64,000 nt of DNA from Amoebophrya sp. A120 (Eukaryota; Protista; Dinoflagellata), in assembly GCA_905178155.1 (NCBI GenBank), contig CAJINV010000012.1, forward strand, positions 2,519,407-2,583,406. Direction: 5' to 3'. The notes beneath the pieces were generated by a model. It was not told where the DNA came from. It made no database searches and worked only from the letters and a program-made list of their open reading frames with translations. Position numbers and translations under genes: made by a program. Numbering within the stretch: the stretch's first letter is position 1; the number at the start of each line of letters is the position of its first letter. Shown piece after piece: positions 3,225 through 62,067 of the stretch.

Positions 3225-6200
3225 TCACTGCTCGCTCGCAGCAGTAGACTTGCGCTGTTGCATTTCCAGGCGGTAGGGCGACACCGAGACCCGGGAGAAG
3301 TAGCGACGGAAGTCGCCCAGCCGCATCCAGAACGCGCCATCGTCCGCCGCAACGAGCTTGACCTGGTTCGACGCTTCCTCGTTCCAGCAGCAGGAGGTGT
3401 CGGAAAAGGCGCCTTTCCACTCCCCAGTTCCCCACGGGTTGCGCAGCTTCACGATGCGGACTTCGCCGGACAGGGTCCCGGACCCGAGCCCGCAGCAACA
3501 CCCGACCGGCACGGTCGCCACGTCGAGAATGCTGTAGGCGTGGGTGGCGACGAGGCCGGTCATCTTCAGGTTCCACAGCATCGTGCAGATGGAGTAGCAG
3601 TCCCAGACGGGACAACAGACCAACGTGAAGAAGCAGTTCGCGGTCTCCTTCGCCACCGTGTACAGGCTGAAGAGGCAGTCAAAGCAGATGGGGACGCTCT
3701 TGCGACACACCGCGGCGCAGGGGTTCACGCACACAGACACTACCATGTTGTACACAATGGCCGGAAAGACAATGTTGGACAGAAACGGCAAGGATTCGAC
3801 GCTGGCGCACGCCATCCCGTTGTCGTTGTCCACAATGGTTCATCAAATGCAAAAATGTCTGGGTCTGGAAGGTTGGAACTTGTCATGCTGGATTTGGATT
3901 CCACAATAAATCTGTATTGCATGAACAGCTAAAGAGGTCCAGTTTTTGCCACGGCGAGAGGGCATTTCTCATGCAGTACAGGCATCAGGAAGCCCTCGCA
4001 ATAAAATCTGTGATGCTAGAGCATGCATCACAGACATCAGGAGTCATGCAAAATGTGCATGACAAACCTTGCACTCTTCCAGACCCAGACATTTTCGCAT
4101 TTGATATGGTTTCCTTCAGAATTTCGTACAAGTCGTCGTCGGTGAAGGTCCGGTATCGTGTGCAAAAGTATCGCATTGGTATAAATGTGAGTCTTGCATT
4201 ACAGATGTTTCTCTCAAGGTAAATCCACACTACGAATTTTATTTCTCATGCTGAGGAAATTTGTAATGCATTTATACGAGTACGATACTCTTGCAGTTCA
4301 TATCCGGGTGAGGCCGGAGGTGCTGACCAACCCCGTCTGCAACCCGGTGAGCGCATGCAGGACCTCGTACGGCTGGCCGCCCGAACCGAATTTGTCCCAG
4401 TCCCCGCCGAACTTCGCCTTGCAGTACGCCTTTTCCAGCAAAAGCGGCCACAGCTTCGAGGAGCCTTTGGAATTCGCAAACATTGGCTTGTTATGCGTTG
4501 CAAAAGTGTATCCTACTCGTATAAATGCATTACAATTATTTTCTCAGCATGACAAATAAAATTTCTAATGCGGATTTACCTTAAGAAGAAGATTTTTAAT
4601 GCGTGACTGCAATTACTACGAGTACAATACTTTTGCAGTTCATACTTGTTGGTTTCGTTGTTCACGTAAAATTGATCGTCCACCGTGTAGGTCTGCCACG
4701 TTCCGTCCTATGCATTGCAAATATGTCTGGGTCTGGAAGGATCCAAACTTGTTATCTTATGCTGTCTTTGGATTCTAAAAAAAATGTGTATTGCATGACC
4801 ACCAAGAGGAGCCCAGTTTGTGCAAGGCGGACGAGAGGGCATTTGTCATGCGGATTAGGAATCGGAAGCCTTCCAAAAATCTGTGATGCAGCTAAGTCGT
4901 GCACTACAGGCATCATGGGTCATGCAAAATATGCATGCCCGGTAATCTTCTAACTAGACCCAGACATTTTTGCAGTTGATACGTCGACGAACAGAACCAC
5001 GTTGTACTGTCCCGACGGGGTCATTTTCGAGTTGGCAAACAAGCTGGTGATATGGATTGCAAATATGTCTGGGTCCGGGAACTTGTAATGCTGGCTTTCC
5101 ATACCTAGAAAATCTGTATTGCAGAACCAACAAAAGTCGTAGCCTCTTTTGATGTGCATGCAAAAACGTAGTTTCTCATGTTGGTTTCCTACGAGAAAGC
5201 CTTCTGGAAAGTTGTCATGCCTGTCTGCATTCGGAACTCTTTCCATCATCCACATTTTAGCATCACAAGTTTCCAGACCCAGATATTTTTGCATTTGATA
5301 GGTGACCCGGTCCGGCTCTTCGGCCAGCGCGGACAGGGCGGCCATGAAATAGCAGTTGGCGATTTCGCCCTGTCCCAGGTCCAGCGGGGTCGGGCCTTGC
5401 TTGTTCTTCCACTTCTGGCCCCGTTGGTTGTTTTCCTCCATCTTTTGCTGCTCCACCGCCTGCAGGGCCACATCGTCCGGGGAGGCAGGAGCTTCTTCTT
5501 CTTGTTTTTCACTTTCCACCTTCGCCTGCGCAATGGATTCCCGGGACATGCCGCCGAACAGGGTCACACACTTCTTTCCCGTCATTCAGCGCCGGCATGA
5601 AGTCGCGCGCGCGGCGCCACTGGCCCCCGTGGGGGAGGTTTTTGTACACGCTGAGGTCCTCGGAAAAGGAGTCCAGCTGGTTTATCATTTGCAAAAACGT
5701 CCCCACACCAGAGTCAAGATGGGCAATCTGCTAGACAAACCAGCCAGCTTTGGTCGTTTGGCATGACAAATTTGTCCTCGTACTGTAGTCCTGTTTAGGT
5801 AGTTCAGCAGCATCACAGATCTAGTGCAACATGCTGACTATAGCATCACAAATTCCAAAACACGACTAGAACATGCGTCTCATGGCGCTCCACATAACAA
5901 AATTTTTTGGCATGCGAATTTGCATCACAACTATGGGATGGGGACGCTTTTACATATGATATGGTTCAGCGCGTCCGCACCCACGGCGTCCAGCTGCTGC
6001 CGCGCGGCCGCGCGCTGCCCTTCCTTCTCGGCATTCACCACGTCCGCAGTCTTGTCCTGGGCACACATGAACTTCTTCGCTTCCATATCAAGTGCAAAAG
6101 TGTCTGGGTCTGGAAGAATGCATGTTTGTCATGCTTGTCTGGCATGACTCTTAAATCTGTCATGCACGTTACCCAAGAGCTCCAATTTTCTGTGATGCAG

Positions 6201-6508
6201 GAACGCAGTTCGTCATGCAGAATAGGCAACACCTAGAAGCTCAGAAACTTGTCATGCTGAGCCAGCATTTGTGGCCTCATCATGAGACGCCACCCAGCAT
6301 CACAAGTTTCCAGACCCAGACATTATTTCACTAGATATTCCATGTCCGCGTCGTTCCGCTGGTGGTACTGCCGTCTTTTACAGCACGTCAAGGCCGCACA
6401 AAAAAAGGAGCAAATTACGTTGACCGTGACCGCAAGCATGTTCAGGAAAGCGGCAAAGCAATTGATGGTGCGCATCTGCACCGTCGCAACGCCGCCGCCG
6501 AAAGGCAT
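3225..6508 (-). CDS. Calpain-family cysteine protease (CysPc domain), 8 exons split by 7 introners
   Basis: After removing elements: QGEIANCYFMAALS (Cys), VDGTWQTYTVDDQF, LWPLLLEKAY, HAYSIL (His), LRNPWG (Asn), DDGAFWM. One apparent 1-nt frameshift near 5580. Confidence 0.9.
3841..4106. mobile_element. Introner, family A (TIR core TGCAAAAATGTCTGGGTCTGGAA)
   Basis: CATCAAATGC...GCATTTGATA; direct repeat TGGTT on both sides; removal gives ETI-VDN in frame. Confidence 0.92.
4154..4302. mobile_element. Introner, family B (TIR core GCAAAAGTATCGTACTCGTA)
   Basis: TAT...ATA ends, direct repeat TCCGG, frame restored (TRTFTDDD). Confidence 0.9.
4492..4644. mobile_element. Introner, family B (opposite orientation to 4154-4302)
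   Basis: Direct repeat CTTGT, frame restored (NKPMFA). Confidence 0.9.
4709..4981. mobile_element. Introner, family A
   Basis: Direct repeat CGTCC/CGTCG, frame restored (VDGTW). Confidence 0.9.
5051..5300. mobile_element. Introner, family A
   Basis: Direct repeat GGTGA, frame restored (RVTSLF). Confidence 0.9.
5683..5961. mobile_element. Introner, family G (TIR core AAAAACGTCCCCACACCA)
   Basis: Direct repeat TGGTT, frame restored (LNQLD). Confidence 0.88.
6086..6337. mobile_element. Introner, family A subfamily A1
   Basis: Direct repeat TTCCA; highly similar to 48720-48971 and to the reverse complements of 43733-43987 and 53962-54213. Confidence 0.9.
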
Positions 6509-8198
6509 TTTTTTTATTCTTGGTGTACTACAGGATGATAATTTCTAGTAGTTAGAATACTTCTAGGGAGGGTCGAGGTCGACCAGGAATTTTATGGGTG
6601 TCCTCTTTGTCATGTGGTTTGGGTTTGGAAGGTAATACTAGCGTCAGCCCATAAGTAATTTCCTGCAATCTTTAATGGTTTGCGTTTTGAAAATGATATC
6701 GTGGCGCTTTTCCTTTCGTAGAACTGCACGATAGATGAAAAGGTCATCAAACGCTTGGTCTTACGACGCGCTCGACTTGCATTCTCCCAATACGAAGATG
6801 CTGGTGATGCAAGACCACAACGATGAAGAACGAGAACCCCAATGAATAAGAACCGACAAGGACTTGGTGTGTAGTACGATAGTGAATACGTCGCTGGTGG
6901 TGCACGACCAAATGAAAGAAGGACGAACCGACCACTGATATCTTTTGCACGACCGATGAGCCAAACGAAACTAACGAACTATCCTAAATTCAATACAGAT
7001 AAATTCATCGTATTCATCCGCTGATATACAAGCAACAGAGTAGTTAACTCGACCACCGAGCTGGCGCTGGCACGTGGTCTAGTTAATCTTTCTGTTCCTT
7101 CGAACAAGGCTCTAAAGGAAATTCTTTTTCGTTTCCCCTCTACTGCGTACTTTGCAAGAGTGATAAGTAAAAATGGATCGTATGATTATGATCCCCGCCG
7201 ACGAGCACGACCGCGAAGAGGAAGATGGCAATGTATGTATAATTGCAATGCCAAATCAAAACTACTGACATAGGCCGACTTTTCAAGAACACAAAGCCCT
7301 AACTTTTGTGAATATTCGACGCAGCGAAGAACAAAGGTCGTGGCTCGCTTTGGAAGATTTCACTTGCAGTAAATGGAGGTGATAAAAAGCTGCAGTTCTT
7401 GCGCTATTTTTCCACAGCCAATCATGGGTGTTACGAATCGGAGTTCCACAATTTTTACACACGATTGCAAGATGAGTTCTTGCTTCTACTGTCGTCAGAC
7501 GGTGGTCTTCGTCCAAGTTCTCCTTTGTGTTGCATCAGTCGTAGTCGCCGACCAGAGCCATCTTCAGTTGCATCTGATTATTGCGGGTTCATCTTGAAAG
7601 TCCACCGCCTTATTCAAAAGCAGACCGCATTCTATTGCAGCTAGCTTCTCTTGGAGCTTTGTACTTTTTGCATCTTTAATATTTTCGGAAACGATACAAT
7701 ACTGAGGCATCAGCCTATCTAGTACGACGTCAGAAACGCAATCATAAGCAAGATAGAAACCAGCGCACGTCGCTGAAAATTACTGAGTGTTAACGTAAGT
7801 AGTTGCAAGACGTAATTTGGTCGTAACACGGATCGACGACCGAAGAGAATGAATGAATTATTGCTGCACGAAGATGAAATGATCGAGACGCTTTTTCTTG
7901 TCTTGCTTCAGTTTCTTTCGTGAATCTGTCTGACAAAAAACGTTGCAGGATCACCCACGACTAAAACGACATCGACACGTTCGCATCCATTTCCATTGTT
8001 GAGCCTCAAGCATCTTCATCTGTGGTGACGAAAAAGAAGGAATTAGAAAAGAAAAGTTCGTGTTCGGTTTAATGTTAGATATTTGTGAATTTGAATACCA
8101 ATACTTTTGTTCTGCAAATTGGTCACGAATATTGAATATTCTGGTGCCCCTCGCTCCCCCCTGTAGAAGCCCCTGCAGTGCTTTCTTAGTACGACCCA

Positions 8199-11100
8199 CT
8201 ACTCCACCTCCACCCCGAAGGTTTTCAGCGCTTTGCAGACGTATTCACACGCCTCACTGCTTTCCAACTTCAACACCAGAGTCCCCTTCGCTTTCCCGAA
8301 CGAGAAACAGACCACCAAATTCTCCTCCTCCGGCAGCTTCACGTGCTTTTCCAAATTCGGGAGATCGATTTGCTTCTTCGAATTTTCGCTTTTCACCAAC
8401 CCCTTAGTCACCTTCTGCAAGTCGGAAAGAGAAAACTCGATAGGCGGGGATATGGATTTTTGCGATTCTTGTGGTTCACCCGTAGAGGCAGAGCTCGTCG
8501 TCGTCGTATTTCGCATCTCTAGTTTGAATTCCGTTTTGGAAGATGTTGTTGTGGTTGTATTTTTCGAGTTCGATTTCTTCTTCGATTTACTCTTGCTGTT
8601 CACAGCGTTTTTACTTGTAGTTGCAACGACGCGGATGTTGGTTGACTCCAATTCCCCGGCACTGTTGAAGACCTTCGTGCCGACTCCGATGGTGGACAGA
8701 AGTTGCTCCCGCATTTTTTCAACCGTGATTTTTTTTTGGGACGAGGTTGTAGTCGTCGTACTCGTAGTCCCGGCACCTTTTTCAACAGCACTTTCCACAC
8801 TGATCATCTTCACGTGTTCGCTGATATTCCCAAAAGACGGCGGCAACAGGGACGAGCTACCGATGCTACTCGCAGGCGTGCTGACCCTCGGGGTGATGCC
8901 GTTTTGTACGAAACCCGAGCTATCCGGAGGGGCAGATCCGCGGACGACCTTGATGTGGAGAGGCGAGTCATGCATTGCCAGAAGCAAACACACAAAAAGT
9001 GATGATAGAAGATGAAGAAATCTTCACTTTTGCATATTTTTCATAGTTTATAGGTTTTTGCAGCATTTACTAGAAACGAATGACTAGCACGCAAGAGTTC
9101 ATCTTCATCAATACCTCTGTCCACCGCTGACGCAGTGCCCGGACCAGTACCTCCACTTTCGGATTCTTCTGGTAAGTTTTGTACTTTTGCGTGAAAACCC
9201 CGATTTTCGTCTCCCGCAATACCGCGACCGTCATGTTTTGAATCTGCGAAATTTCTTCAAAACAGCTGTAAACCGACGCGTTGCCGAAGGGGGAAAAAGC
9301 TTCACCCCCGTCTCCGCTCTCTGTAGACGTGATCATCTCACTCGCCGTCTCTTCCAGTAGCAAAATTTTTCCCATCAACTGCCGGATCTTTTCAATCACC
9401 TGCTGCTCCTCCGCCGAGGGGGTAGATGAACTACTGGTGCTAGTCGTGGTGCCACTACTCCCTCCAGCAGGGTGGACAGGAGTTTGCGCTTGGCTCCCCG
9501 CTGGAACGAGAAACTTCATCGGAGAACGGGTCGCTTGTACCGGAGGCGCTGGAGGGGGAAGATTTTCCTTGTTTGGGGACAGGAGAACCTCGGATTTGTT
9601 GCTGCCGGTGTTCATTTCGTCAACGCCGGTTGCAGAAGTCGCAGCTACTCCCGAAACAATTTTTGCGGCTGCAAAAGTACTAGATGCAGAAGATGCGTCA
9701 CCACTGCTTGCGTCCTCGGCACTACCTGCTGCTGATCCGCTCTGGTGCTGAAACAGGACCTGTTCGACCTGCTGTGCCAATCTGGAAGTTTTAACTTCCT
9801 GGGTTTTCTCGTAGTCGAGATTCACTTTCGGAGAGATCACCGGACTCTTTATTTTCTGCAGCCTGCTTTGCGGACTTACCGCTTGAACACCATTAAACGA
9901 CAATTTTGGACTGCTGTTGCTCGAGGTGGTATTCGCTGTTACGTTCGGAACCAGAGTAGAACTCGCCTGCTGCGGATGCTGCTGCGTTCCTACAACCACG
10001 CTGGTTTGCTGAATGCTTGGCCGGGTGGTTTGCTTCTTCACGAATTTCGTCGGGCTCGGAGTGTGCAGCGGTACCAAGTTGTGCAGTGTGTTTGGGGAAC
10101 TACGTTTTTTATTCGTGGTTGGACGATTGGGTCCGACGAGGACGTCCTGTGCGGCTGTTATTTTTTGTTCTTGTTGACCCCCGGGGATGATTTGCGCCGG
10201 CGGTGCTGGCGGAACTGTATTTGTCGCAGTGCTCGCCCCACTGGACACTCCTGTATGGAACTGTCAGGATTGAAATGGTCAAAGTTGAAATAACTTGCAA
10301 TGCATAAAATCGATACCAATTGAAAGCCCAATTTTTAAGCAGTGCATGACAAATTATCCGACCATCGGAAATCAATTTGTCATGCTGTTTGGGCACAGGC
10401 GACTGCTTTTGTCATGCTACTTTAGCAGCTCTATTTCAAACCCTAAACAGGCTCACAATCGGCCTCACTTGCCAACCCGGCAAGACAGGCACTTCATGCC
10501 TTGCATTTTATGCATCACAAACTATCTCAACTTTGACGATTTCAATCCTGACGCTTCCATATCCTGCAGCATGGTAGTAATTGAATTTCATCAAATTGTT
10601 GCTCGGGAGGTTCATTTCCTCGATAGAATTACTGGATTCTTTAGTCTGCTCCGTAACTGCACCAGGAGCTCCGTCAGCGCTAGAAGTGCCAGCACCGCCA
10701 TGCAAAATGAATGGCGATGATCCACCACCCCGTGTTAATGGAGACCCCGCCCGATTTTGATTCAGCTTGCTTCCCTGAATCAAGTAGCTCGGGGTCGGTG
10801 TTGGACTTGGGCTGCTGAATTCGGAATTCGAAGCCGAGGGGGAAGACCGTTGCGTGCGCGTCAGAAACGCCGGTGGGCTACTCAGCAAGTGCCCGGGTAA
10901 GAAACCCGGGGAGGAGGAAGCAGTAGCCTGGTGATTTATGGCGATGTTGTTGTAGTTGCTGGCGGCAGCTGCAGCACCAGCAGCTGAGTGGGGGCCACTG
11001 TAGTTGCTGTTGTGGTACAGCAACCCAGGTGGAACAGATTGTTGGTGCAGCTCCTGATGTTCTTGATAGTTCATGTTGATGCCATCGCTTGCGCCTCTAC

Positions 11101-13129
11101 TTCCTGTAATCATGCCGGCACTGTCATCCTGCCCCGTCCGAGCGGTAATCGACCACGGCTCCTTGCTGTTTTGGAACGAATATCCTGTGCAAAAGAAAAA
11201 GTTTCGTTGTCATGCAATACAAATCTCTTCTTTTACCGAAATCAGCATGAGAAATTCCATTTGTCATACTGACACTGAGCTAATTTGTATTGCAAGGACT
11301 GGTACAGGTACGATACTTCTTGCTTTTGCAATTCATAACGAAGCGGAAATGAAGTCGAAGTTTTCCTCCCCCGCAAAGCCCTCATTCGTCGGCACGAACT
11401 TTTCCAAATTGAACGCTTCACGGTTCAGTTTGTCCCGGGCGTGGTAGCAGTAGTGGGGGTAAAAAAAGTTGGAGTCGCTTTCGACACTTTCGCTCTCCTC
11501 GTCTTCGTTTGATGGTCCATCTCCGCGGTGGGAACTGTCGTCCTCGTCTTCTGGACGAAGATCATCTTCACGACGGGGATCGTTCGACTCTTCGTTCGCA
11601 CCAGACGAGGGTCGCTGTTGCTTGCGAAGATCTTCGTTTGTTCTCTTCTTCGGTATCTTCCTTCTGGCCGTGTACATCGCGCCTTGGTATCAAAGTGAAA
11701 GATCCCCCCTCCCCATATTGAAACGGAAATTTCTGTTGCTGGATTTGTGTACACAAATCAGCCCTGTCTTGCAGTGAGGCACTACAAGCAAAGCCTCAGC
11801 CTGCGTAGGGGTGTTTTGTTGACGGCGCTTAGCATGACAGAGGCCTGCCATGTACGTGCAACAGCATCACAAATCGCCTCCATAAGGCTGCGAATTCTTT
11901 GGATTTGCCTTCTTGCAAGAGAGACAGGATTTGTGGTCACAAATCAGCATCACAAATTTTTCGGAACATACGTTTTCAATATGGGAAGGGGGGATTTTTC
12001 CTCACGGTACTTGGGAAGCTCCTCCTCCACTCCCTCCGCTATCGAACACCACCGCACACAGCGCATCGCGGTCCAGGATGGCCTGCTGGATATGCATGGC
12101 AAAAGGATCTACTTCGCACTCGTACCCATTACAACTTTTATGCAGTAAGACAAACGATGACGATGTCGCTCATACATTCATAGGATGAAAAATCAGCACA
12201 ATTTACAAGCTTCACTTTCCATGCTCAGCAAATTTATTGATGTCATGCAATCGCTCCGAGTAATAAGGTAGGCACAACCAGAACTTTTGCAATGCATACT
12301 GCAAGCGGTTTGACATTTCCAGGTCCAGAATCATCATCATCTCCCGGACGTAGCAGCGAAGCTATCCCATGCAAATATGTCTGGGTCTGGCAGAATGCAA
12401 GTTTGTTATGCTTGTCTCACATGACTCTTGAACCTGTAATGCGTGAGCAGGAAAAGAGCCTCTTGCCTGTCATGCAAAAGTTTGTCATGCGGATAGCGAA
12501 ACACAAAGGAGCCCAGAAACTTGTCATGCGTGGCTGCCTATTCCATTGTCCATCCAATTCACAAAATAGCAACACAAGTTTCCAGACCCGGACGTATTTG
12601 CAATGCATAGAAACATGTCGAAGCTGATGTTTTCCACCGGAAGGAGGTTTATCAGTTTGTCCAAAGCGGACAAGGTGTTCTCCTCCCCGGCGTCAATCTG
12701 GTCCAGAAACTTCTGCGTACAGGTCAAGATGTCCGCACGGTTGATAAAGTTCTGCCGCTGCTGCGCCCGCATCTGGATCCAGAACACGCTGCACTCCTGC
12801 TTCAGGTTGTTCTCGTTCAGCATCACCTTCTATGACAGTGCACAGCTCCCCCTCCCCCTCATTTGCGTTGCATGAACAGCAATGCAAACACACCCACCTG
12901 TGGAGCCTGGGCATGACAAGTTCATGCGCCTAGTGTAGTACTGTTTGGGCTTCCGGCATCTGTCATGCAAACAGTACCACACAGCAGCGCTTGGATTTGG
13001 TATTTTGCATGACAAATGAGGGGGAGGGGGAGTTGTGCACTCTCATACCTTCGCGAATTTTTTCCGATACTCCGCAAGCTTCTCGATGCGGGCATCGGAC
13101 TCCTGCTCCCGAAACAGACAAAGACCCAT
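8199..13129 (-). CDS. Large low-complexity protein with TFIIS N-terminal-like (LW) domain; 6 intact introners plus 1 decayed intron
   Basis: ATG 13129 (MGLCLFREQ); all exons join in frame; LRETKIGVFTQKY...VRALRQRW resembles TFIIS-N/IWS1. The join to 8199-8969 relies on a decayed intron. Confidence 0.7.
8970..9094. other. Putative decayed introner-type intron
   Basis: Flanks GAGTC/GAGTT, left end ATGCATTGC; removal plus 5 nt gives MN-SPLH in frame. Confidence 0.5.
10254..10561. mobile_element. Introner, family C (TIR TATGGAA..GTCAGGATTGAAAT.GTCAAAGTTGA)
   Basis: Direct repeat TCCTG, frame restored (AAG-VSS). Confidence 0.92.
11181..11337. mobile_element. Introner, B-like, diverged
   Basis: Direct repeat ACGAA, frame restored. 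Confidence 0.8.
11688..12009. mobile_element. Introner, family H (TIR core AAAATCCCCCCTCCCCATA)
   Basis: Direct repeat CTTGG; right end GTA; frame restored (SQGAMY). Confidence 0.88.
12091..12298. mobile_element. Introner, B-like, diverged
   Basis: Direct repeat CTGGA/CTGCA, frame restored. Confidence 0.8.
12363..12609. mobile_element. Introner, family A
   Basis: Direct repeat GAAGC/GAAAC, frame restored. Confidence 0.88.
12831..13047. mobile_element. Introner, family D (TIR TATGA.AGTGCACA.CTCCCCCTCCCC)
   Basis: Direct repeat CCTTC, frame restored (FAKVML). Confidence 0.9.
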
Positions 13130-13922
13130 TTTGAAGATCGAATTCGAAAAAATGCAAATGTGACTCTTGATCTTGATGCTGAGCCGAACAAGAAGAGGTT
13201 GAGGTTATTTGAAGTAAGTTGTAGTTGACAAGATGAGCCAACTTCTTGTCGCGGTGGTACGCCGTCCTCCTGGCGTTCAACCTTGTTTCGGAGTTTCTAG
13301 ATTATATACAAGAAGAAGAACTTCGCTTCGTCTTCTACTAGCTGGAAAATGCAACTTGATGTTGAATGCTTTTTTCAAAGAAAATTGTTGCGAGCAGCGC
13401 CCTCACATTCACTGTAGAACTTAGTAGACCTCTATGTGTGCTGCAAGCTTAAGGCGTAGCAAGCACGAGCACCTCACTCAAGGTACTTGACATTACTGGC
13501 GATACTAAAGCTCGCGCGACCCCGACAGCCATGCTCTACGAGAAGTAGATTAAATGGATGAGAGAAGTACTTGTAGTTCATATGAAGGAGCGACGAGCCA
13601 ACTACAGGACCAGTCACTTTTGCTCTCATCACTCTCACGAATGACGAGGCGCCTTCACAACTCTCTAGTGATGCCGTCCACTCTGTTCGGTCGACGTCGG
13701 CCACGCAACGCTCCTCCACCTCTTCGCGCCTCGTTTTATTACCGGCGTATTTTGCCTAAAATCAAGTCACGAATGCTTTGCGCTTGGGAGAAAGACGAGG
13801 AGGTGAGCGAGGAATCATGGAAGAACATCCGTAGTTCAAGTTCATGAGGGAAACGAAAAGTAGTCCTCGCCCGCACTAAAAATCATAAAAGAAAAGAAGG
13901 CCATCTATTTTTGTCAACATCT

Positions 13923-15766: not shown

Positions 15767-16024
15767 TTTCTTATATATTTCTGCTCGACGGGAGCAGGGA
15801 GTAATAGCTGTAACACCAGATGACAAACAAGGAGATTACAAGTGGTGCCCCTAGTGTAACCACCTACTTGCCTTTACATGAGAGACTGTTGAGACTGACT
15901 GAAAAACTGGAGGCACATGCAACGGCAACCACCAACACAACATAAGTTGAAGTACTGGGAAGCAGGCATGATCTGAATATAACAATGAATTACGCGGCTA
16001 GAAGTCGGAACAACCTAGTTGTAA

Positions 16025-27336: not shown

Positions 27337-27700
27337 GATGCGCGACCACGCGGGTTTCGTTCAGGTTCACCTCAGAGGAACATGATGAATTTATTCTATT
27401 CGGCGCTTTCGCCTCAGAATATCCTTTTACGGCCCTGCATTCTCATTATCGCCTGGATTGGTACTCTGTCTGCTGCTGAGATCGATTGAAAAGATTGCGC
27501 TGCTGATGTAGAAGAAGAAGAAGAAGAGGACGACGATGATGACAAAGTAGAACTATTTCTGTAGTTGAAGCTGTTGCTGTCATTTGTGGTTTGGGAGGTA
27601 CTACATAGCTGCTGCTGATCTAGAAGTCGTGGTAGTAGTGGAAGATGATAAAGATGAAGACGATGACGAAGATGCAGAAGAGGCAGGGACTACTGATCCT

Positions 27701-33600: not shown

Positions 33601-35129
33601 TTGGGCGGCTCGTAGCCCGGCGGCTTCTTGTCCAGCTCCTCCTGCTGCTGTTGTAGCTTGTCCTTGCTGCGGCAAAAGGCGCGGACCTATTCAGGTGATG
33701 AATTTTTACGGCTTGTTTCTTTGCTGCATGATCTTCTTGTTTCATGGAGAAGGAGATCGTGACAAGAACGAGAATCATGAAAAAAAAAAAACAAACTCAT
33801 TAATGTTGACTTTAACGGAGATAATGTAGTTTGGGCTGAGAGCGATGACAGCGGGACCGTTCGTTTTACAGTTCCTGCGCACTATTGAAGATTGCCCTTA
33901 GCTGTGGGTGTCACCCACAGCCCTTCTACATGAAGATTGTTCTACTTCACATTCATTTTTGCAACGCCAGGTGTCTTATTACCCTAAAAATCCCGGACTG
34001 CAGCGCGTTTCGGACCATCCACTGCCCCGTCCGGCTAGTGGCTCCGTAGATGACCAGCAACTGTTTCTCCAGTTTCCATGGTTCGTATGAGAGTGCACAA
34101 CTCCGCTCCCCCTGATTTGTCATGCAAAGTACCTAGCTTACGTCTTGCCTCTTGGCTCTATCTGCATGGCAAGTTCTGGCAGTCCAAATAGAACTACACT
34201 CCTGTCCAAATCTGTCATGCAAAACGTGTACTCTTGTTGACGCTTGTATTGCTCTTCATGCAATACAAATGAGGGGAAGCAGGGGGAGTTGTGCACTCTC
34301 ATAGTTCGTGCGGGGGTGGCTCCGCCGCGATGTCCGACCGGGGGGTCAAGTTGGGCGTGGGCGGCTGGTATCAAGTGCACATATGTCTGGGTCTGGACTG
34401 TCATGCACATTTTGCATGACCCCTGATGTCTGTGATGCATGCCCTAGCATCACAGATTCTGTGGGGGCTTCCTGATGCCTATACCGCGTGAGAAATGCCC
34501 ATTCGCCGTGGCAAAAACTGGACCTCTTTTGCTGTTTATGCAATACAGATTTATCTAGAGTCCAAATCCAGCATCACAAGTTGCATCCTTCCTTCCAGCC
34601 CTCCCAGACATATTTGCAATGCATAGCTGGTAGACCTTCGAAGAAAAATGCACCGGGGACTCGCCGTCAAAATCGTGCCCCTGCTTCGGGATGGTCTTCA
34701 CGCTTTGGGTGGATATCGTGAGGAAAAATCCCCCCTCCCCATACCAAAAAGGGGCACTCACACTTCTCAAAATTTGTGATGCTGATTTGTGGCCACAAGT
34801 CGTCTCTGTATTGCAAGAAGGCCAATCCGCCGGCTCCGGAGACTCCGCCACATTGTGCGGGCGGTTTGTGATGCTACGGGGCCTACAGAGTACAACATAT
34901 TTGCCATGCTACGAGCCTACGTCAAAACCCTTCTACTTAGGGTTAGGCTTGGTATGGGCCTGCAGTCCCCTACTGCGAGACAGACCTGATTTGTGTACGC
35001 AAATCCAGCATGAGATGAAACTTCCTTTTGATATGGGGAGGGGGGATTTTTCTTTTTCATAGTGGAGCCTCGCTTCTTGCTGGTCGTCAGGTCGTCCCCC
35101 TGCAACGGGTTCCCGTCCTGGTCCGCCAT
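30625..35129 (-). CDS. NAD(P)-binding protein (NAD_binding_10/flavin reductase-like), 9 introners plus 1 canonical intron
   Basis: ATG 35129; LLVIYGATSRTGQWMV..GIFR|VRAFCRSKDKL and LEIIEGDITD; all 10 junctions join in frame. Confidence 0.8.
30950..31095. mobile_element. Introner, family E
   Basis: TIRs clear; flanks diverged (CCCTT/TCCGC) but element plus 5 nt restores frame. Confidence 0.85.
31397..32331. mobile_element. Nested GC-rich foldback/minisatellite insertion
   Basis: Interrupts the B element; flanks CTATTAC/CTAGTAC; AGAGG-rich left arm complementary to CCTCT-rich right arm. Confidence 0.6.
31901..32092 (+). repeat. Minisatellite, ~15 x CGCG(C)CACCCTCT (12-13 bp)
   Basis: Directly visible tandem array. 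Confidence 0.95.
32428..32670. mobile_element. Introner, family A
   Basis: Direct repeat TCACG. Confidence 0.88.
32786..33073. mobile_element. Introner, A-like, diverged
   Basis: Direct repeat GCCAG; left end CAT. Confidence 0.8.
33118..33363. mobile_element. Introner, family I
   Basis: Direct repeat CTGCA. Confidence 0.88.
33412..33559. mobile_element. Introner, family B
   Basis: Direct repeat AGATG. Confidence 0.9.
33687..33982 (-). other. Canonical GT-AG intron
   Basis: AGG|GTAATA...GAATAG|GTC joins GIFR to VRAFCR. Confidence 0.8.
34086..34303. mobile_element. Introner, family D
   Basis: Direct repeat GTTCG. Confidence 0.9.
34369..34625. mobile_element. Introner, family A
   Basis: Direct repeat GCTGG; reverse-complement relative of 3841-4106. 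Confidence 0.88.
34714..35061. mobile_element. Introner, family H
   Basis: Direct repeat GTGGA; opposite orientation to 11688-12009. Confidence 0.9.
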
Positions 35130-48719: not shown

Positions 48720-48971
48720 TATCAAATGTAAAAATGTCTGGGTCTGCAAGAATTCATGTTTGACATGCTTGTCTGGCATGACTCTTAAATCTGTCATGCA
48801 CATTGCAGAAGAGCTCCGCTTTTCTGTGATGCAGACGCGCAGTTTGTCATGCAGAATAGGCAACACCTAGGAGCTCAGAAACGTGTCATGCTGAGCGAGC
48901 ATTTGTAGCCTCATCATGAGACGCCACCCAGCATCACAAGTTCCCAGACGCAGACATTTTTACTTTTGATA
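48720..48971. mobile_element. Introner, subfamily A1
   Basis: Direct repeat GACCT; host exon not confidently identified. Confidence 0.9.
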
Positions 48972-53592: not shown

Positions 53593-53898
53593 TATGGATG
53601 TGTCAGGATCGAAATCGACAAAATCGAAAAACTTGTGATGCATAAAATGTAGGGCACTGAAGGCCTGTCTTGGGGAGCATGCAAATGAGACCGATGGCAA
53701 GCCTGTTTAGGGGTATGCAATGTGCTGCCAGAATAGCATGACAGGGGCAGTCTTCTTTGTCTAAACAGCATGACAGACTGGATTTCGGTGCTCCCGAAAT
53801 TTGTGATGCGCCACTTGGAAACTGAGGCTCCAACTGGTATCGATTTTATGCATCACAAATTTTTCGATTTTGTCAATTTCGATTCTGACACTTCCATA
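53593..53898. mobile_element. Introner, family C2
   Basis: Flanks TGAGT/CGAGT; empty site in the duplicate near 54967. Confidence 0.9.
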
Positions 53899-53961
53899 CG
53901 AGTACCCCTTCGGGTAAAACCCCTCGGTGTGTATGGAAGCAAAATGCAGGAGTACTAGGTG

Positions 53962-54213
53962 TATCAAATGTAAAAATGTCTGGGTCTGGAGACTTGTGAT
54001 GCTGGGTGGCGTTTCATGATGAGGCTACAAATGCTGGCTCAACATGACAAGCTTCTGAGCTCCTAGGTGTTGCCTATTCTGCATGACAAACTGCGCTTCT
54101 GCATCACAGAAAAACGGAGCTCTTGGGTAACGTGCATGACAGATTTAAGAGTCTCGCTAGACAAGCATGACAAACATGAATTCTTCCAGACCCAGACATT
54201 TTTGCATTCGATA
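53962..54213. mobile_element. Introner, subfamily A1 (reverse orientation)
   Basis: Flanks AGGTG/AGGAG. Confidence 0.9.
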
Positions 54214-54999
54214 AGGAGTCACAGCGGGTACTATTCGTCGATGACTACTTCTTCGTTCCTAATATGCAAGAAACACATTTCTATTTTTCCACGTTCATAT
54301 GGATCATGCACAATTTTCTTTTTTTTCATCGTCATGATCTTCCTGCCATCGTCGTCCGAGGTTTTGCTGCACATTCCCGACTCGGCTTTTTCGTGTGATA
54401 CGCAGGGGCATCTTTGTTCGCGTCGGGAGTTGGTGTACTACAGCTCCGCCCGTGTCAATTTCAAACAACTAATTGTATTAACTCGTGCGATAAATTATAG
54501 CCAACTGCGATACTCTTGCTCGCTCATGGAAGAAGACGCCTAGAAAAACCTCTCTTACAACTCCGCTAATGGTTGTCGCTCGTATTTTCTCTCCGATGTT
54601 TGTGTTTTAAGTTGGACAAGAAGTATCACAGGGACATGTGCCGTCGTGCTCGTGGAATGGCCGCCAACACACCAGATTGGCGTGGAGTAGAAACACCGAA
54701 GTCATACGGAGAAACTCGAACCGTACACGGAACTACACGAGGACCACTTGCATACCGTTTCTTGGAAGATGAACGGGAGTCTAAATACCGAACACACCAA
54801 CGCGAAGTTAGGACCAGAAGCGATGCCGATGGGTCTGCTGTACTGCAACACACAATTACATCGGGACCACACAGTGTTTTTTCCGTATACAACAAGCTTT
54901 CTGTTAGCATGCAGGCGGTTAAGTTTTCCTTTTCTAAGCCATTCCGACATCCAGCGCCTTCTCCAGCGAGTACCCCTTCGGGTAAAACCCCTCGGTGTG

Positions 55000-55259
55000 T
55001 ATCAAATGCAAAAGTGTCTGGGTCTGGAAGAGTGAAACTTGTAATGCTGTCTGCGGATTCTAAAAATATCTGTGTTGCATGAGCAGCAAGAGGAGTCAGC
55101 TCTTGGCACGCGGAGAGGGCATTTGTCATGCGTAATTAGCATCAAGAAGCTCTCAAAAAATCTGTGATGCTAGCACCAGCATGACAGACCTGACAGGTCA
55201 TGCAAAATGTGCATGACAAGCCCCGACTCTTCCAGACCCAGACATTTTTGCATTTGATA
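55000..55259. mobile_element. Introner, family A (non-A1 interior)
   Basis: TIRs intact; left flank altered by a 30-bp deletion relative to the duplicate. Confidence 0.88.
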
Positions 55260-57042
55260 AGGTATCACAGCGGATAATATTCGTCGATGATTACTTCTGT
55301 CCCCATGCAAGACCACACATTTCCATTATTTCACGTTCTTCAGAAAATTAAAATTATATGCATCATGCATAATATTCTTTTTTGTGATGACGATCATCGT
55401 CATGAAGATCTTCCTGTCGTCGCCATCCGTGGTTTTGCTGCACATCCTCGACTCGCATTTTTGGTGCGATACGCAGGGGCATCTTTGTTCGCGTCGGAAG
55501 TCGGTGTACTACAGCTCCCACATCAATATCAAACAACTACTTCCTCGTGCGATGAATTATAGCCAACTGCGATACTCTTGCTCGCTCAGAGAAGAATATG
55601 CCTAGAAAAATCTCTCCTACAACTCTGCTACTAGTTGTCGCTCGTACTTTCTCTCCGAGTTTTGAAAGTAGAGAAGAACCGCAGGACTATGTGCCGTCGT
55701 GCTCGTGCAATGGCCGCCAACGCCAGGTTGGCGTTGAATAGAAAGACCGAAGTCCTACGGAGAAACCCGAATTATTGGCGGAACTCCTCCGCGAGGACCA
55801 CTTGCATACCTTCGCTGAGACGCGTTCCGATGAAATAGCCAAAAGCGGAATTTCGTGGAATTTTATGTCTCGAGATTTGTTTCAAAAGTCTTTCTCCCTT
55901 CATGCAGGTGGAGCTGACCCACTAAATGAACCTCCGTTATTTTCCCTTTCTCTGTTCTTTATTCATTTTTGCGTGGTTTCCTCTGTGTCGGCGCAAATTC
56001 TATTCCAAGCGGGACCATATTTGGTTGTGAGTCAAAAACCATAACCGAATGCTTTGGGTAGCGGCCAGTCTGGGTCTCATGCAAACATGCAAAAAGCTGA
56101 AAACGTAGCGGCATTAGAAGTTGTATGCGTTGTTTTTGCGAGGATGCGCATCCCCCCGCCATGCAAATAGTGGCGCTGTCTTCTGTTACGCCTCCCTACA
56201 AATTAGCCTCCCTTCAAATTATTCCCTATATTTTCTGAGTGGTTTACTGGATACTCCTATTGCTTTACTATATTTACTTTTCCTCGTTTCCCGAAATTGA
56301 GACGTTGACTGGAAGACTCCCTCTGGGGGCACTGGACTAACCACTGTGACCCCTATGACAAAAGTGATCCTTTATTAAGTTTTGCTATTCCCTGCGAAGC
56401 TTTGGTCTGATCTTGTCGGACATTCAAATACTAAATTTTTACAGTTAGGTTGGTGAGATTCTTGAATTTTTCATTAGATTTTCCCTCAATTCATCATACA
56501 GAAGAACGAAACCAAAACAATAGCAACGCGCTATTTCTTCACTTCAGACAAAATCTTCACTGTTGGTCGCGCAACAACCCCAGAGACAAGATGACCTGCT
56601 CAGAAGTCGTTCATGTCATCCGCCGGCCGCGGCGGCGGCGTCGGCGCGCCGTTGTTGTTCGCCTGGCCGATCTTTTCGATTCTCTGCACCACCGAAGTCC
56701 TACGGAGAAACCCGAATTATTGGCGGAACTCCTCCGCGAGGACCACTTGCATACCGTTTGGAAGATGAGCGGGAGTCTATACACAGAACACAACAACGCA
56801 AAGTTAGCACCAGAAGCGATGCGTGTGCTGTACCTGTACTGCAACGCACAGCTACAACAACGCACTGTGTTTTTTCCGTATGCAAGTTTTCAGTTTTGTG
56901 GTAGCACGCAGGCGGTTCAATTCTTCTTTTCTGAGTCACTCCATCCTCAATCTTACAGCACACACAGTTCTTTTTCAGCAGCAAACCGCCCTTGTTAGGA
57001 ACCGACAGCAGATGGCCAAGACTCTTTAAGATCCTAAGTTCT

Positions 57043-57196
57043 GTATCGCTAATGAAAAAAACAAGTTTAGTTTTGTCGCTAATGAAAAAAAGAAGTTTAA
57101 AAGTTGTCCGAGAAAGATCTTATGTCACAAAAAAATCGTAAAGAAGTATCGCTATCGCTAATGAAAAAAAGAAGTTTAAATAACGAAGAAGTTTAG
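57043..57196 (+). repeat. Three imperfect copies of TCGCTAATGAAAAAAA..AAGTTT
   Basis: Directly visible, intergenic. Confidence 0.75.
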
Positions 57197-57347
57197 TTCG
57201 TCAAGACCATCTCTGGTGTCGATCCAAATCGCCGTGGGCGCATTACGTGCTGGTGTGAAACGTGTCGGAATAGAAAATCTCCAATCGAAAGCGAAAGTGC
57301 TTGTTATATCTAAAACTCAGAGAAAACTGCACTTTACTCCATCTTCC

Positions 57348-60300
57348 TCACTGCGCCCCACTCAAGATGGCCATGGCTTGCTGGACGGCTTCGATCTCTT
57401 GCGTCATGGCTGCCTGCCTCTGGTATCCACAGTAAATTTCCCGCACACGTACAAATGCGGTCTCTGCATGACAAAACTCGGCTTCGATCCTACTTTAGCA
57501 TGACAAGTTTTACGCCCCAGATTGGTGAGCTTTGTGATGCATCTTGTACATGTACCACGGGAGATTTGTATTGCATATCTGGTCGAAGTTTTGCACGACA
57601 AAGTCGCACTCCATGTGCAGGGCCTTCAGCGCCTCCGCCAGTTCCTCGATCTTGGTCAGCGTGGACTTCAGGTCGGCCTTGCACTGGTGCAGGTCCCCCT
57701 CCGACTCGGCCTTGGACTCATATCCTGAGTAAAAATGTCCCCATACCAGAGTCAAGATGGGGATCTCGCAACAGAAATCGAGAAGTCTTGGGGGCCAAGC
57801 ATGGCAAGTTTCTCTCTGTATTGTAGTGCAGTGTAGCAGGTACAGCCGCAACACAAATCCAGCTACTCATCATCTTTCCAGCATTACAAAGTCCAAAACA
57901 CGATAGAAAACGCCTCTCATGGGGATGCGCATTACAAATCTTCCTGCAGCTGCAAATCTGCATGACAGCTATGGGGTGGGGACGTTTTTACTCAGGATAA
58001 CTCAATCGCGGTGTTCAGCTGCGCTTCCTTGTCGGCAAGGTCGTTTATCACACGAAAAAAGTGCTACAGTACACACTTTTGTGGTGAATTCTGCAACACA
58101 ACCATGCCTTTCCAGCACGAGAGAGGCCGTCTGGCTTGCTTGGTCTGCAACACATTATGTAACTGTAACACTTTTTTCGTTGCATATCTTTGGAAGAATC
58201 CGCAATGAACTTGTCGTAGGCGGTCTGGGCCTCCTGCTCTGCCAACTGCGACTTCCCGACGGTCTATGAACTGCAAAAGTATCGTACTCGTATAAATGCA
58301 GGTCTTGCATTACAAATTTCTTTGTCAAGGCAAATCAGCATTACAAATTTTATTTCTCATGCTGAGAAAATTTGCAATGCATTTATACGAGTACGATACT
58401 TTTGCAGTTCATACGGTCTGCTCGCTGTCGATGATGATCTCCTCAATCATGCCCATGATGCCCACGCCTATGCATTGCAAATATGTCTGGGTCTGGAAGA
58501 TACTGAACTTGTAATGCTGTCTCTCGATGCTAAGAAAATTTGCATTGCATCGCCAGCAAGAAGACTCCAGTTTGTGCTACGCGGAGAGGGTATTTCTCAT
58601 GCGGTGGAGGCAGCGCAAAGTCCTCTAGAAATCTGTGACGCTAGGGCATGCATCACAGACATCATGGGTCATTCAAAATATGCATGACGAGCCTGGCAAT
58701 CTTCCAGACCCAGACATTTTTGCAGTTGATAACGCCGTTTTTCTTTTTATATCCGCCAGCTTCCAGGCCAAGCGGGCCCCCGGGCTGCTGCAGGAATTCT
58801 TCGGAGTCCTTGTCGTAGAAAGACTTCAGCTTTTCCTTTGCCTGCTTCAAAATTTTCTGCGTGATCTTCTGGTCGGAGAAGATTTGTTGGTACTCGGCGT
58901 TTTCTTCTTTTCGGTTGTTGGTCGCAGACTGGATGTCAATGTGCAATTCGGAGATTTCCTTCTTGGTGTTGGCAATGTGGAATGCAAAAGTATCGCAGTA
59001 CTGGGAAGTGTAAACTATAGGACCACAAATTATGTCGGCCAGAACGAAGACAGAACTTGTAATGCTGTTGTAGGTCTGGAAAGAGTTTTGTCATGCATGA
59101 CTGCAAGAATTTATCCCGGGTACTTGCGATGCTTTTGCACTGCATACGCAATCGTGGCTTCTAATTCCGCGATCGTGTTTTCCAGCTTCGTCTTCTTTCC
59201 CGTCAAGTCCTCGGCTAAATATTTCATTTGCGTGGTCTCCTTATCGTTGCTGTCAAACCCGGCGAGGCAGTAGTCGCGCTTCTTCACCTCGTCCTTCATT
59301 TTTTGCTTCAGCTCGGTATCCACAGGAAATTTCCCGTACACGTACAAACGCAGTCTCTGCATGACAAACTTACTGGGCTTCGATCCTAGTTTAGCATGAA
59401 AAGTGTTACTTACAACGCTCCAGATTGAAATTGGTGAAACTGATTGTGATGCATCTTGTTCATGTACGGGAGTAAATTTGCATTGCATATTCCGCAACCA
59501 ACTCCGTGATCATCTTTTTCACTTCCTCAAACGCCGCCAGCTGCACCTTCGTGGCCATCAGCGACAGCTCCGGGGCGAGGAAGGCCTTCTGCCGGAGCAA
59601 ACTCGCGGCTTTCTGCTTCATGGAACTGAGCGTGTTTCTGGTTTTGAGCTTCGTTTGCAGGAACAGCGTCGGCTTCAAAGTTTTGTTAAACTGGTCCCGC
59701 GCCTCGTCAGAGGTCAAGATGTCCACAGTGGCTTGCAGCGCCTTCAACTCCTCGGTCTGGGCGGCCGTCCTGGCTTCCAGCTCCTTTTTGTCGGCTGCGG
59801 ATCTTTCGTTGACGTCCTTTAGAAACGCTTTGTCCGCCTCTAACGTGTCCTTGGCCTCCTTCAGCGCCTTTTTGCTGCGCGCCAGCTCCTCCAGACCCCT
59901 CGCGAGCGCCTCTTTGTTCTTGTGCAGCTCCGCCCTTCCCGCGGCGATCTCCTCGCGCTTGGCCCTTCGCAACGACTTATCAAATGCAAATATGTCTGGG
60001 TCTGGAAAAGTGCAACGTTTGTCTTTGTCATGCGCGTTTTGCATGACGCATCAGGTCTGCGAGGCATGCCCTGGCATCACAGATTACTTGAGATCTTTTC
60101 CATGCCTTTTCCGCATAAGAAACTGCCTCTCGGCTTGCTCAAAAGTGGACAGCTTTATTGGTATATCATGCAACACAGATTTTTGCATGATTCAGCTTTA
60201 GCATTACAAGACGCACTCTTCCAGACCCAGACATATTTCCTATGCATACGACTCGAAGGATTGCAAGTTGGACGCCTCGTCGTCCTGGGCCTTTTTTTAT

Positions 60301-62067
60301 GCATGGCAAATTTTTCCTGTACATGTACAAAATGCATGACAAATTTTACCAAGTCGGACTTGTCATGCTGAATAGGATTGGAAGAAAAGTTTGTCATGCA
60401 GAAATCACATTTGTACGTGTACGGGAAATTTATTTTGGATATTTTCAGCTCAGCGGACATGGTCTCCTTCATCTGCGACAAAATGCCGTATATCAAATGT
60501 AAAAGTGTCTGGGTCTGGAAGAGTGCCAGACTTGTCACGCAGGTTTTCCATGACCCGTGAGGTCTGGCATGTAGGACATAGCATGACAGATTCTGTGAGA
60601 GTTCTATCATGCCACTCCTGCATGAGAAACTGCATCTCGATTAGGTCTAAAGTGGACAGCGTTTGGTAATGATGCAACACAGATTTTTAAATGATTCAGA
60701 GTTAGCATGACAAGTTGCTTTGTTCCAGACCCAGACATTTTTGCATTTGATACCGTAGATCTCGCCGGACGCGCTGGCGTGTGCCGGCAAGCCGGAGTCC
60801 AGCAGGGATAAAGCGCCACGCAGGTCGTCTTTAGGAAGGTAGTCGCTGTTGTTTAGAAAAGTATTAAAAAATGAAAAATCGCTTGTCAAAACCTAAACGT
60901 AGGAATGGAAGATCGATCAAAGAAGTGGTGCACTCTACTTCATCGGCATGTTGATCAAGGTCATACCTGTTCAGCTCCAGTATTCTCCTGACCTCAAGGA
61001 ACGATTGGTGCTTCTTCAGAATCGTCAGCGCGCCGGTTAGTTGTTGGATGGCTTTGATCGTATCTTTCTGGTACTGGGTGAAAGATTATGCATCGGAAGA
61101 GCACCAGTCTCGCAGTGATAGTGTGTGATTGAAATACTACATGATAAACCGACATGATAAAAAATTTAAGATGTTGTATGAATCAGCATATGCAAAATCT
61201 GAATTAAAATCTTCCCACGACTTGGTACGTTTATATTGCCAATTCCACTAAATGATCTAAAAGACTGCACTTTTGCAATGGGTAAAGACGCAGCTTCCTT
61301 TTCCCTCTTTTTCTCGATGGTTTTTAGCTGCTGCTCGTCCTCGGCGAGGTCTGATTTAGATTTTCATGATTTAAATTCTGAAAATTGCATGACAACCTTC
61401 CCCTCAGCACGACACAAACAAAAACTCGCCCGTACTCGTCTACTTCTTGGTTGCATCCACTACAGATCTTCTTGCTCGAAGGTGTACTAGTCATGTAGAT
61501 CTACTACACCCAGCGACACAAAGTCAGAATTTGAAATGGAAACTTGTCATGCTAATACGCAATAGTCCTACCTTTGGTCAGCTTTTTCACCGTCACGTCC
61601 AGTGCTTTGGTTTCTGCAGTCAAATCTGTAATTTTTGCTTCCGTCTCTGCGATATGCATTGCAAAAGGTTATTGCGGCACTTGTACGGGTTGCAGTTTGC
61701 TTATGCGTTATAATTCAATTTTCTAAAGATGAATCAGCATAAGAAACTCCACTTTTCATGTCATACTCATGCTGAGCCACCTTACTAGTACAATAATGCA
61801 ATCCCTACGAATACGCTAGTACAACTTTTGCAACTCATACGCGATAAAGGCTTCCCCGGCTGCGATGGCGTCCTCCTTCTCCTTTCGATTGGTGGCCGCC
61901 CAGCACTGCAGTTTTTTGGAGATAGCGGCGTCAGATTCCATGTCCTTCTCAACCTCTGCCTGCATGGACTTCAGCAGGGCAAGTACCTTCGCTAAGGGCG
62001 ATCCTTCGGTGGCAGAAACATAAGTGACGGAGGCGGCGGTCGCGAGGACCGTCCTCCTTAGACGCAT
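57348..62067 (-). CDS. Probable secreted long coiled-coil protein of a type common in dinoflagellates; 12 introner-type plus 2 GT-AG introns
   Basis: Signal-like MRLRRTVLATAAS, SPLAKVLALLKSM...LQCWA, SGEIYGILSQMKE, AFEEVKKMI..L..EL...DEVKKRDYC, LHMECDFVVQNFDQRQ...AMAILSGAQ*. Confidence 0.8.
57424..57577. mobile_element. Introner, family E
   Basis: Direct repeat TCTGG. Confidence 0.9.
57721..57999. mobile_element. Introner, family G
   Basis: Direct repeat ACTCA. Confidence 0.9.
58046..58186. mobile_element. Introner, family F (short)
   Basis: Flanks TCGTT/TCTTT. Confidence 0.85.
58265..58413. mobile_element. Introner, family B
   Basis: Perfect TIR TATGAACTGCAAAAGTATCGTACTCGTATAAATGCA; direct repeat CGGTC. 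Confidence 0.93.
58469..58731. mobile_element. Introner, family A
   Basis: Direct repeat ACGCC. Confidence 0.9.
58976..59146. mobile_element. Introner, B-like
   Basis: Flanks GGCAA/CGCAA; left end TGT. Confidence 0.8.
59317..59489. mobile_element. Introner, family E
   Basis: Flanks CTCGG/TTCCG; frame restored (VAE-LKQ). Confidence 0.87.
59978..60248. mobile_element. Introner, family A
   Basis: Direct repeat CGACT. Confidence 0.9.
60298..60441. mobile_element. Introner, family E (reverse orientation)
   Basis: Flanks TTTTT/TTTTC. Confidence 0.87.
60491..60752. mobile_element. Introner, family A
   Basis: Direct repeat CCGTA; frame restored (EIYG-IL). Confidence 0.9.
60846..60966 (-). other. 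GT-AG intron, probably introner-derived
   Basis: AACAG|GTATGACCT...AACAG|C; flanks ACAGG/ACAGC. Confidence 0.65.
61087..61284. other. Decayed introner-type intron
   Basis: Flanks AAGAT/AAGAC; frame restored (AS-FTQ). Confidence 0.7.
61351..61571 (-). other. GT-AG intron with residual introner motifs
   Basis: AAAG|GTAGGA...AATCAG|AC joins LTK-DLA; GCATGACAA and TTGTCATGC inside. Confidence 0.7.
61653..61839. mobile_element. Introner, B-like, diverged
   Basis: Flanks TGCGA/CGCGA. Confidence 0.8.

Follow-up and report, generated by a model that had tools for sequence, protein, structure and literature searches.

In the available part of Farhat 2021 (PMC7789003), the introner elements of the marine parasitic dinoflagellate Amoebophrya sp. 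A120 are RNA-supported, non-canonical introns without an internal transposase; their inverted repeats start with TAT followed by seven looser bases and a run of A, and they are flanked by direct repeats of 3-5 nt (5 bp in the legend of Fig. S19), while their borders are called variable and unknown (Fig. 3 legend) and the legend of Fig. S23 gives 1-5 nt. The accessible part of Gozashti 2025 (PMC12130899) reports 58 A120 families, with most of 32 rows classed as terminal inverted repeat (TIR) DNA elements; family 38 is listed with '5-bp TSD, TA/TA termini' (TSD, target site duplication) and Copia/Gypsy integrase-like homology, and the splice-site counts are taken from annotation and are mixed. 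Here, we analysed the TAT...ATA inverted-repeat elements in a 64-kb stretch of A120 contig CAJINV010000012.1 (the window; 64,000 nt), their removal from transcripts and the position of the cuts.

Two further systems invite comparison. Judging from the parts of PMC13326754 and PMC11282704 at hand, introns of Fritillaria borealis likewise have transposon-like inverted repeats and duplications, mostly escape the GT-AG rule and undergo U2-type removal; by contrast, U1 is kept and AG-AC and AG-AT ends are favoured in Fritillaria (PMC13326754), whereas neither end base is restricted in A120, where no U1 was found. Nonconventional introns of euglenids, as described in the available part of PMC6221363, share paired ends, junction repeats, a lack of conserved borders, new insertion sites and an unknown mechanism; however, they belong to an unrelated lineage, pair from +4/-6 rather than from +2/-5 as in the A120 elements, and show a pyrimidine/purine junction bias that is absent from the A120 elements.

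Protein P0004 of Amoebophrya sp. A120 is identical to the CRAL-TRIO exons of the window and maps exon by exon across the elements. Because a host protein is thus identical to an A120 gene model, the window elements are published A120 introners. They combine TAT, seven looser bases and an A run with a direct repeat, non-canonical removal, transposase-free families and an A120-type host. We conclude that the window elements are the A120 introners already described by Farhat 2021 and Gozashti 2025, with the window families set beside those of the latter by description only. A preliminary description of the window, made from the sequence alone, had drawn this link, and the identity of P0004 together with the published TAT start and direct repeats bears it out. 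The elements, the TAT start, the 5-nt repeats and the RNA support are known in print; added here are a register in which cuts fall one base before and four bases after the element (1+4), a balance of orientations, and a first T that is invariant on one side. We found no mention of register, orientation balance or end asymmetry in the literature, including the available parts of PMC12005148 and PMC11453091; figures 3 and S19-S23 of Farhat 2021, Henriet 2019, Roy 2023 and preprint supplements may hold part of it.

The preliminary description had put the elements at about 70, in at least 12 TIR families that obey one rule (TAT start, ATA end, 5-bp duplication). Our catalogue, built from relaxed and homology scans in addition to a TAT-blind scan, holds 67 elements between 3841 and 61839, and 40282-40597 brings the number to 68; they make up 16,178 bases, or 25%, of the window, interrupt the majority of its genes, and all their host frames lie on the - strand. 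Eleven families with at least three members, together with 14 unclustered copies, fit the earlier family count, and the data support a single rule for all of them. The ends are exactly TAT...ATA in 61 of the 67 catalogued elements and off by one base in the other six, including 3841-4106, which starts with CAT on the + strand; as had been stated for this element (transcript-strand flank AACCA), sliding the borders gives no GT-AG. The 5-nt flanking repeat, of unrestricted sequence, is exact in 41/67 elements, has one mismatch in 18 and two to four in eight. The TAT-blind scan turned up 37 pairs of inverted repeats flanked by an exact 5-nt repeat, of which 33 were TAT...ATA, against 0 in two shuffled sequences; an exact repeat combined with at least 14 of 20 paired end bases gave 38 candidates vs 0 in each of three shuffles. 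Among TAT...ATA elements of another assembly, the exact repeat was 5 nt in 322/421 and never 6-9 nt, although the detector favoured 5-nt repeats and this count is therefore not blind. An Rfam search gave no match, and the end pattern was absent in viral contigs.

Evidence on RNA came from contigs of four runs (X3-X6; two samples of one study) placed on positions 43300-62300. We read these runs as RNA, which is a guess, because the same contigs also skip ordinary GT-AG introns; no run recorded as RNA contained the window. Fifteen of 37 joints in these contigs were listed: seven remove an element plus exactly 5 bases, six are GT-AG introns on the - strand, and two are mis-placements between tandem paralogs. 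In the gene at 57-61 kb, the listed element joints lie at 57424, 57721 and 58046. Contig coordinates add a junction at 55000 (run X5 record 15, letters 499/500), and the contig piece 57715-59491, with 569 letters expected and seen, adds the removal of 58265, 58469, 58976 and 59317; the piece 50194-51780 held 396 letters, as expected. In total, 12 elements are removed with exactly 5 nt in the likely-RNA contigs, 11 of them without any GT-AG option. The elements are thus absent from these contigs together with exactly one repeat of the flank and with non-GT-AG ends, which agrees with the precise non-GT-AG removal claimed earlier. Both orientations of family 1 are represented among the removed elements (51396 and 58265). 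Raw RNA runs X10-X12, from another strain, were neutral: over 3000-22900 they covered no host exon and held only element-like sequence. In X10 and X12, abundant reads with related element parts and flanks of their own fell on 3842-3889, 21175-21281 and 21330-21437; in X10, sequence resembling a library adapter directly precedes an internal element position, as a transcript start or a reverse-transcription stop would give.

Mismatches between the two repeat copies reveal the position of the cut. For 50962 and 55000 they leave a single, forced solution: one base ahead of TAT and four bases beyond ATA in transcript direction. A cut 1 base before TAT is also compatible with the RNA junctions at 50475 (0-1), 58046 (0-2), 51396 (0-3) and 59317 (1-3), and with the gene-model junctions of P0004 at 37811 (0-1), 39144 (0-3) and 40282 (0-2, by eye). 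One register, intron = N-TAT...ATA-NNNN, is therefore forced at two junctions and compatible at seven, and may well apply more widely; the 1+4 register is likely the majority outcome rather than the sole one. At element 14367, cuts that draw 4-5 repeat bases from the 3' copy would give rise to a stop. Elements 53593 and 53932 were left out of the informative junctions. For 53593, a contig on the paralog with the cut at 0 was set aside as an exception, because two X3 contigs cannot both span 45 identical bases with 31-base words and the X5 side has 28 bases; this contig likely differs at that base.

The ordinary introns of the same contigs are similar at their 5' ends: all six GT-AG introns start with GTA, and four start with GTAT. 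An internal motif, GCAT(G/C/T)ACA, which lies near both element ends and is a putative transposase binding site, occurs in 184 copies inside elements and in 15 outside, and ten of these 15 lie in four GT-AG introns. These four introns are likely old, decayed elements that have turned into ordinary introns in the same register.

A single metagenome-contig scan gave a wider sample of 145 loci of another assembly with 451 distinct elements; these loci carry the window families, at up to 96% identity. A codon model assigned the host strand with confidence for 306 elements and 145 were dropped; the model was correct for 64/67 window copies, in a comparison that is not independent of its training. 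The 306 elements and the 67 of the window were pooled (373 elements). Orientation relative to the transcript was 74:74 in the main family, 24:31 in another and similar elsewhere. Of the 373 elements, none had a variant first T at the transcript 5' end and 14 had one at the 3' end (p 1.2e-4; for the loci without the window, 0 vs 10), and variants of the third base numbered 8 at the 5' end vs 1 at the 3' end (p 0.04), with an interaction between base and end of p 1.8e-5. The opposite directions at the two bases argue against a simple strand mutation bias, and an end constraint that follows the transcript and not the element points to recognition on RNA.

In the inferred register, U would stand at +2 in 373/373 elements and the base at +3 would be A in 372 and G in one. 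An A at -7 is kept in 372/373 and might, as a guess, be the branch site. The first and last intron bases are free (A19 C18 G15 T15 over the 67 window elements), AG stands at the intron end in 5/67, and no selection for G at +1 or for AG at the end was detected; GT-AG falls in the register in 9/373 pooled elements and, in the window, in 12831-13047 only. Predicted end pairing had a mean probability >0.5 in 45/66 elements. The junction phase in this register leans to phase 0 (156/66/86 of 308 framed pooled elements).

On this evidence, we lean towards removal from pre-mRNA by a modified, U1-less major spliceosome that is guided by the paired element ends. According to the available part of PMC7789003, U2, U4, U5, U6 and 83/89 spliceosome proteins have been found in Amoebophrya and U1 has not; the accessible parts of PMC13326754 and PMC12316389 describe a U2-type spliceosome that handles non-GT-AG introns in Fritillaria and, in Trichomonas, a 3' site and a branch site fused into one. 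Cutting in the 1+4 register would leave four repeat bases of the 5' copy and one of the 3' copy in the mRNA. The element TAT would then occupy +2 to +4 of the intron (N-UAU), just as UAU does in ordinary GUAU donors, and the predicted end hairpin would hold the junctions together, such that the 3' site would be measured from the hairpin and not read as AG. With symmetric ends, the orientation of the element would not matter. The dedicated excision system that had been proposed in the preliminary description did not emerge; because the ends give a donor-like N-UAU in the GUAU register of the same transcripts, the case for a modified general spliceosome is at least equally good.

Several observations weigh against this spliceosomal reading. 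The removal evidence consists of contigs of one study, taken as RNA by guess, with 15/37 joints listed, and both forced junctions come from old copies with three repeat mismatches. A genome-only codon test of the register was not significant (34/63) and leans to cuts near the 5' end. Among 63 framed single-mismatch elements, repeat mismatches fell on codon positions 1/2/3 in 10/10/43 cases and 38/63 were synonymous, vs 28-45% expected with one purely intronic copy (p<=0.01). From this third-position excess, which speaks against a strictly fixed cut, both copies look coding-constrained. Two explanations offer themselves: the cut may vary from molecule to molecule, or empty alleles may convert the repeats. 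Splicing is said to depend on the first-last intron base pair (available part of PMC13326754), and in the pooled elements these bases do not covary (G-G plus A-C, 66 vs 65.9 expected of 373). By U2-type standards, the elements have, in the inferred register, a conserved U at +2 and a purine at +3 but neither GT-AG nor a G-G/A-C pair. The internal motif was rejected as a strand-specific branch site, its 3' copy being no better kept (109 vs 137, p 0.085). Moreover, 21/66 elements pair poorly in the model, including the removed 50475, 50962, 57424 and 59317.

Some of these points would suit a non-spliceosomal removal from RNA, a route suspected for euglenid nonconventional introns. Here the cuts, with the same 1+4 spacing around the hairpin, would be made by a structure-reading endonuclease plus ligase or by a protein that binds the paired ends. 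First and last bases that are free and do not covary, the lack of a strand-specific branch motif, orientation-blind removal and the U1 not found in Amoebophrya (PMC7789003, in its available part) all speak for such a route, as do the euglenid introns, whose paired ends have a short 5' and a longer 3' overhang (+4..6 with -8..-6; available part of PMC6221363) and which leave as circles (available part of PMC11282704). By contrast, the invariant U falls on intron +2, the motif-bearing GT-AG introns share the register, some removed copies pair poorly in the model, and no such enzyme is known; we rank this route second, as possible but doubtful. Equally tentative is its strongest form, in which the hairpin and one U, and neither end base, are read, and thousands of A120 introns are cut 1/4 in either orientation without a spliceosome. 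If true, nuclear pre-mRNA would have a second splicing chemistry, convergent with the euglenid one, and nearly any exon insertion would be made harmless. The register, the orientation balance and the invariant U make the removal mechanism sharply testable, and both possible answers are of interest, be it a spliceosome blind to the two end bases or a distinct splicing enzyme. The register also gives annotators a rule for placing the borders of A120 introner introns.

The preliminary description had left room for excision from RNA or from DNA, and the evidence disfavours the DNA branch. Excision from DNA in the expressing stage, as for ciliate internal eliminated sequences, with RNA copying the edited genome, could account for symmetric ends, orientation-blindness, a symmetric internal motif resembling a DNA-binding site, and repeats constrained as coding in both copies, as a join within the repeat could give. 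Run X1, likely DNA from its even depth over genes and spacers (its kind is not on record, and it is possibly the window's own source), has contigs that enter elements 3841 and 6086. The contig ends listed beside elements (8/8) extend 26-88 bases into the element, with a depth (26-29) that resembles that of element-free contigs, and no element-free junction, as the preliminary description proposed to seek, was found among these eight ends; they are eight of 20,000 pieces from one run of unstated stage, and rare forms are lost from contigs. If an element-free form were common, the assembly would branch at the repeat; these ends show no such fork, which disfavours DNA excision. Moreover, both the conservation of the ends and the register of the cut are tied to the transcript strand, and in run X5 an unspliced contig of depth 5 across 50475, beside a spliced contig of depth 128, fits a precursor. 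We know of no separate germline nucleus in Amoebophrya, which also counts against DNA excision, and we consider it very improbable. Least credible of all, and refuted for 43300-62300 by the likely-RNA contigs, is the notion of ordinary GT-AG introns with shifted borders or of dead host genes: sliding the borders does allow GT-AG in 3/67 window and 16/373 pooled elements and the calpain frame is broken near 5590, but 11/12 removed elements have no GT-AG option and a 74%-identical ortholog is gap-free at 10 junctions. In total, the register, the orientation balance, the 5'-invariant T and the free first and last bases favour RNA-level, end-guided removal over DNA excision.

The elements are non-autonomous inverted-repeat transposons that lie in coding exons in either orientation with a 5-nt target duplication. 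That the 5-nt repeat is a target duplication follows from an empty site in a tandem paralog (54967-54971). Spread would be due to an integrase-like DDE transposase encoded elsewhere and making a 5-nt staggered cut. Ginger elements (available part of PMC2836005) similarly combine an integrase-type cut with long inverted repeats, and TDD-4/TDD-5 have 5-bp duplications; they differ in TGTNR ends and mostly 4-bp duplications, against TAT(C/G) and 5 bp in the window. The 5-bp repeat and the empty paralog site agree with Ginger duplications (4 bp, 5 bp in TDD). Membership was rejected on the termini, TGT occurring at one end of 1/67 window elements. As a further point against our reading, no transposase was found: in line with the preliminary description, the 22 exons and open reading frames scanned in the window held only a reverse-transcriptase remnant (28092-28883). 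The long TIR copies with an open reading frame that had been suggested as a target did not turn up, there being no autonomous copy in the 64 kb plus 724 kb of loci; the longest end-matched copies measured 0.5-1.9 kb, and the longest stop-free stretch in long copies (247 codons) lies inside repetitive cargo.

Some observations concern these copies and sites. Element 31276-32357 (1082 nt) holds GC-rich cargo, of which the repeated part 31392-31795 matches L017:1170-1572 (82% over 406 bases); this cargo sits in long elements of two different end families (31276-32357 and L017:505-1608), and no transposase-like frame was seen in it in either. In the tandem paralogs at 53400-55800, the shared site 53932/55000 is occupied by different subtypes of a single family, inserted in opposite orientations; one of them is a young copy next to a 25-base remnant. 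The paralogous genes 17178-18845 (no element) and 20864-23747 (four elements) are 71% identical; in their alignment the single-copy site is clear at 22504, approximate at 22145 and unalignable at 20970 and 21331. On the - strand, 27604-28883 is a reverse-transcriptase remnant (PF00078) in separate frames, likely of a retrotransposon without long terminal repeats.

Deleting the elements with 5 nt opens host frames of 881, 640, 576, 495, 414, 390, 292 and 253 codons, over 4-10 elements each. In a frame test, which is partly circular and carries little weight, deletion with +5 was open in 53/53 cases, with +4 or +6 in 0, and with the element retained in 1. Deletion had been said to rebuild calpain, CRAL-TRIO, FkbM and Rossmann motifs; Pfam on single exons supports the first two (PF00648 on exons in profile order; PF00650), whereas FkbM and Rossmann, known only as motifs of the preliminary description, had no Pfam match on single exons. 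A25 orthologs of window proteins are 67-74% identical, and that of the 57-61 kb gene (P0001; 74% over the query exon) is gap-free at all 10 junctions. Protein P0009 spans 43437 and 43733 as reconstructed and ends before 44117/44553, across which the search found no gene model. The calpain frame breaks by one base near 5590, outside the elements, from an assembly slip or a real frameshift.

Table. Inverted-repeat elements and related introns of the window, grouped by host frame
Feature	Coordinates	Strand	Remarks
Calpain gene elements, n=7	3841-4106, 4154-4302, 4492-4644, 4709-4981, 5051-5300, 5683-5961, 6086-6337	- (gene)	PF00648 on three exons; 4154-4302 and 4492-4644 of one family, opposite orientations
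881-codon frame elements, n=6	10254-10561, 11181-11337, 11688-12009, 12091-12298, 12363-12609, 12831-13047		
253-codon frame elements, n=5	13996-14275, 14367-14482, 14514-14674, 14821-15127, 15491-15752		
576-codon frame elements, n=4	20970-21281, 21331-21610, 22145-22452, 22504-22739		
640-codon frame elements, n=4	25003-25238, 25392-25534, 25793-26050, 26141-26292		
292-codon frame elements, n=6	30950-31095, 31276-32357, 32428-32670, 32786-33073, 33118-33363, 33412-33559		
34086..35061 elements, n=3	34086-34303, 34369-34625, 34714-35061		
CRAL-TRIO gene elements, n=7	37412-37580, 37634-37782, 37811-38100, 38898-39063, 39144-39480, 39913-40106, 40282-40597		
390-codon frame elements, n=8	43437-43664, 43733-43987, 44117-44264, 44339-44511, 44553-44862, 44896-45109, 45196-45460, 45527-45850		
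Element	48720-48971		Removed with 5 nt in contigs of 4/4 likely-RNA runs; GT-AG reachable inside repeat
Old element	50475-50706		4 repeat mismatches; missing together with 5 nt; possible cuts 0 or 1 base ahead of TAT; no GT-AG option
Old element	50962-51112		3 repeat mismatches; forced junction, removed piece 50958-51113, ends TT..AT
Element	51396-51566		Missing together with 5 nt; possible cuts 0-3 bases ahead of TAT; no GT-AG option
GT-AG introns with element internal motif, n=4	50197-50399, 50763-50882, 51164-51298, 51620-51781	-	Three start GTAT
Element	53593-53898		Missing in tandem paralog, which has single 5-nt site 54967-54971
Composite element	53932-54213		25-nt remnant of older end plus young copy 53962-54213
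Element	55000-55259		3 repeat mismatches; forced junction, removed piece 54996-55260, ends TT..CA
495-codon coiled-coil frame elements, first 5 of 10	57424-57577, 57721-57999, 58046-58186, 58265-58413, 58469-58731		
495-codon coiled-coil frame elements, last 5 of 10	58976-59146, 59317-59489, 59978-60248, 60298-60441, 60491-60752		
Element	61653-61839		1 repeat mismatch

Finally, 61350-61570 is likely a GT-AG intron and contains two copies of the element motif.

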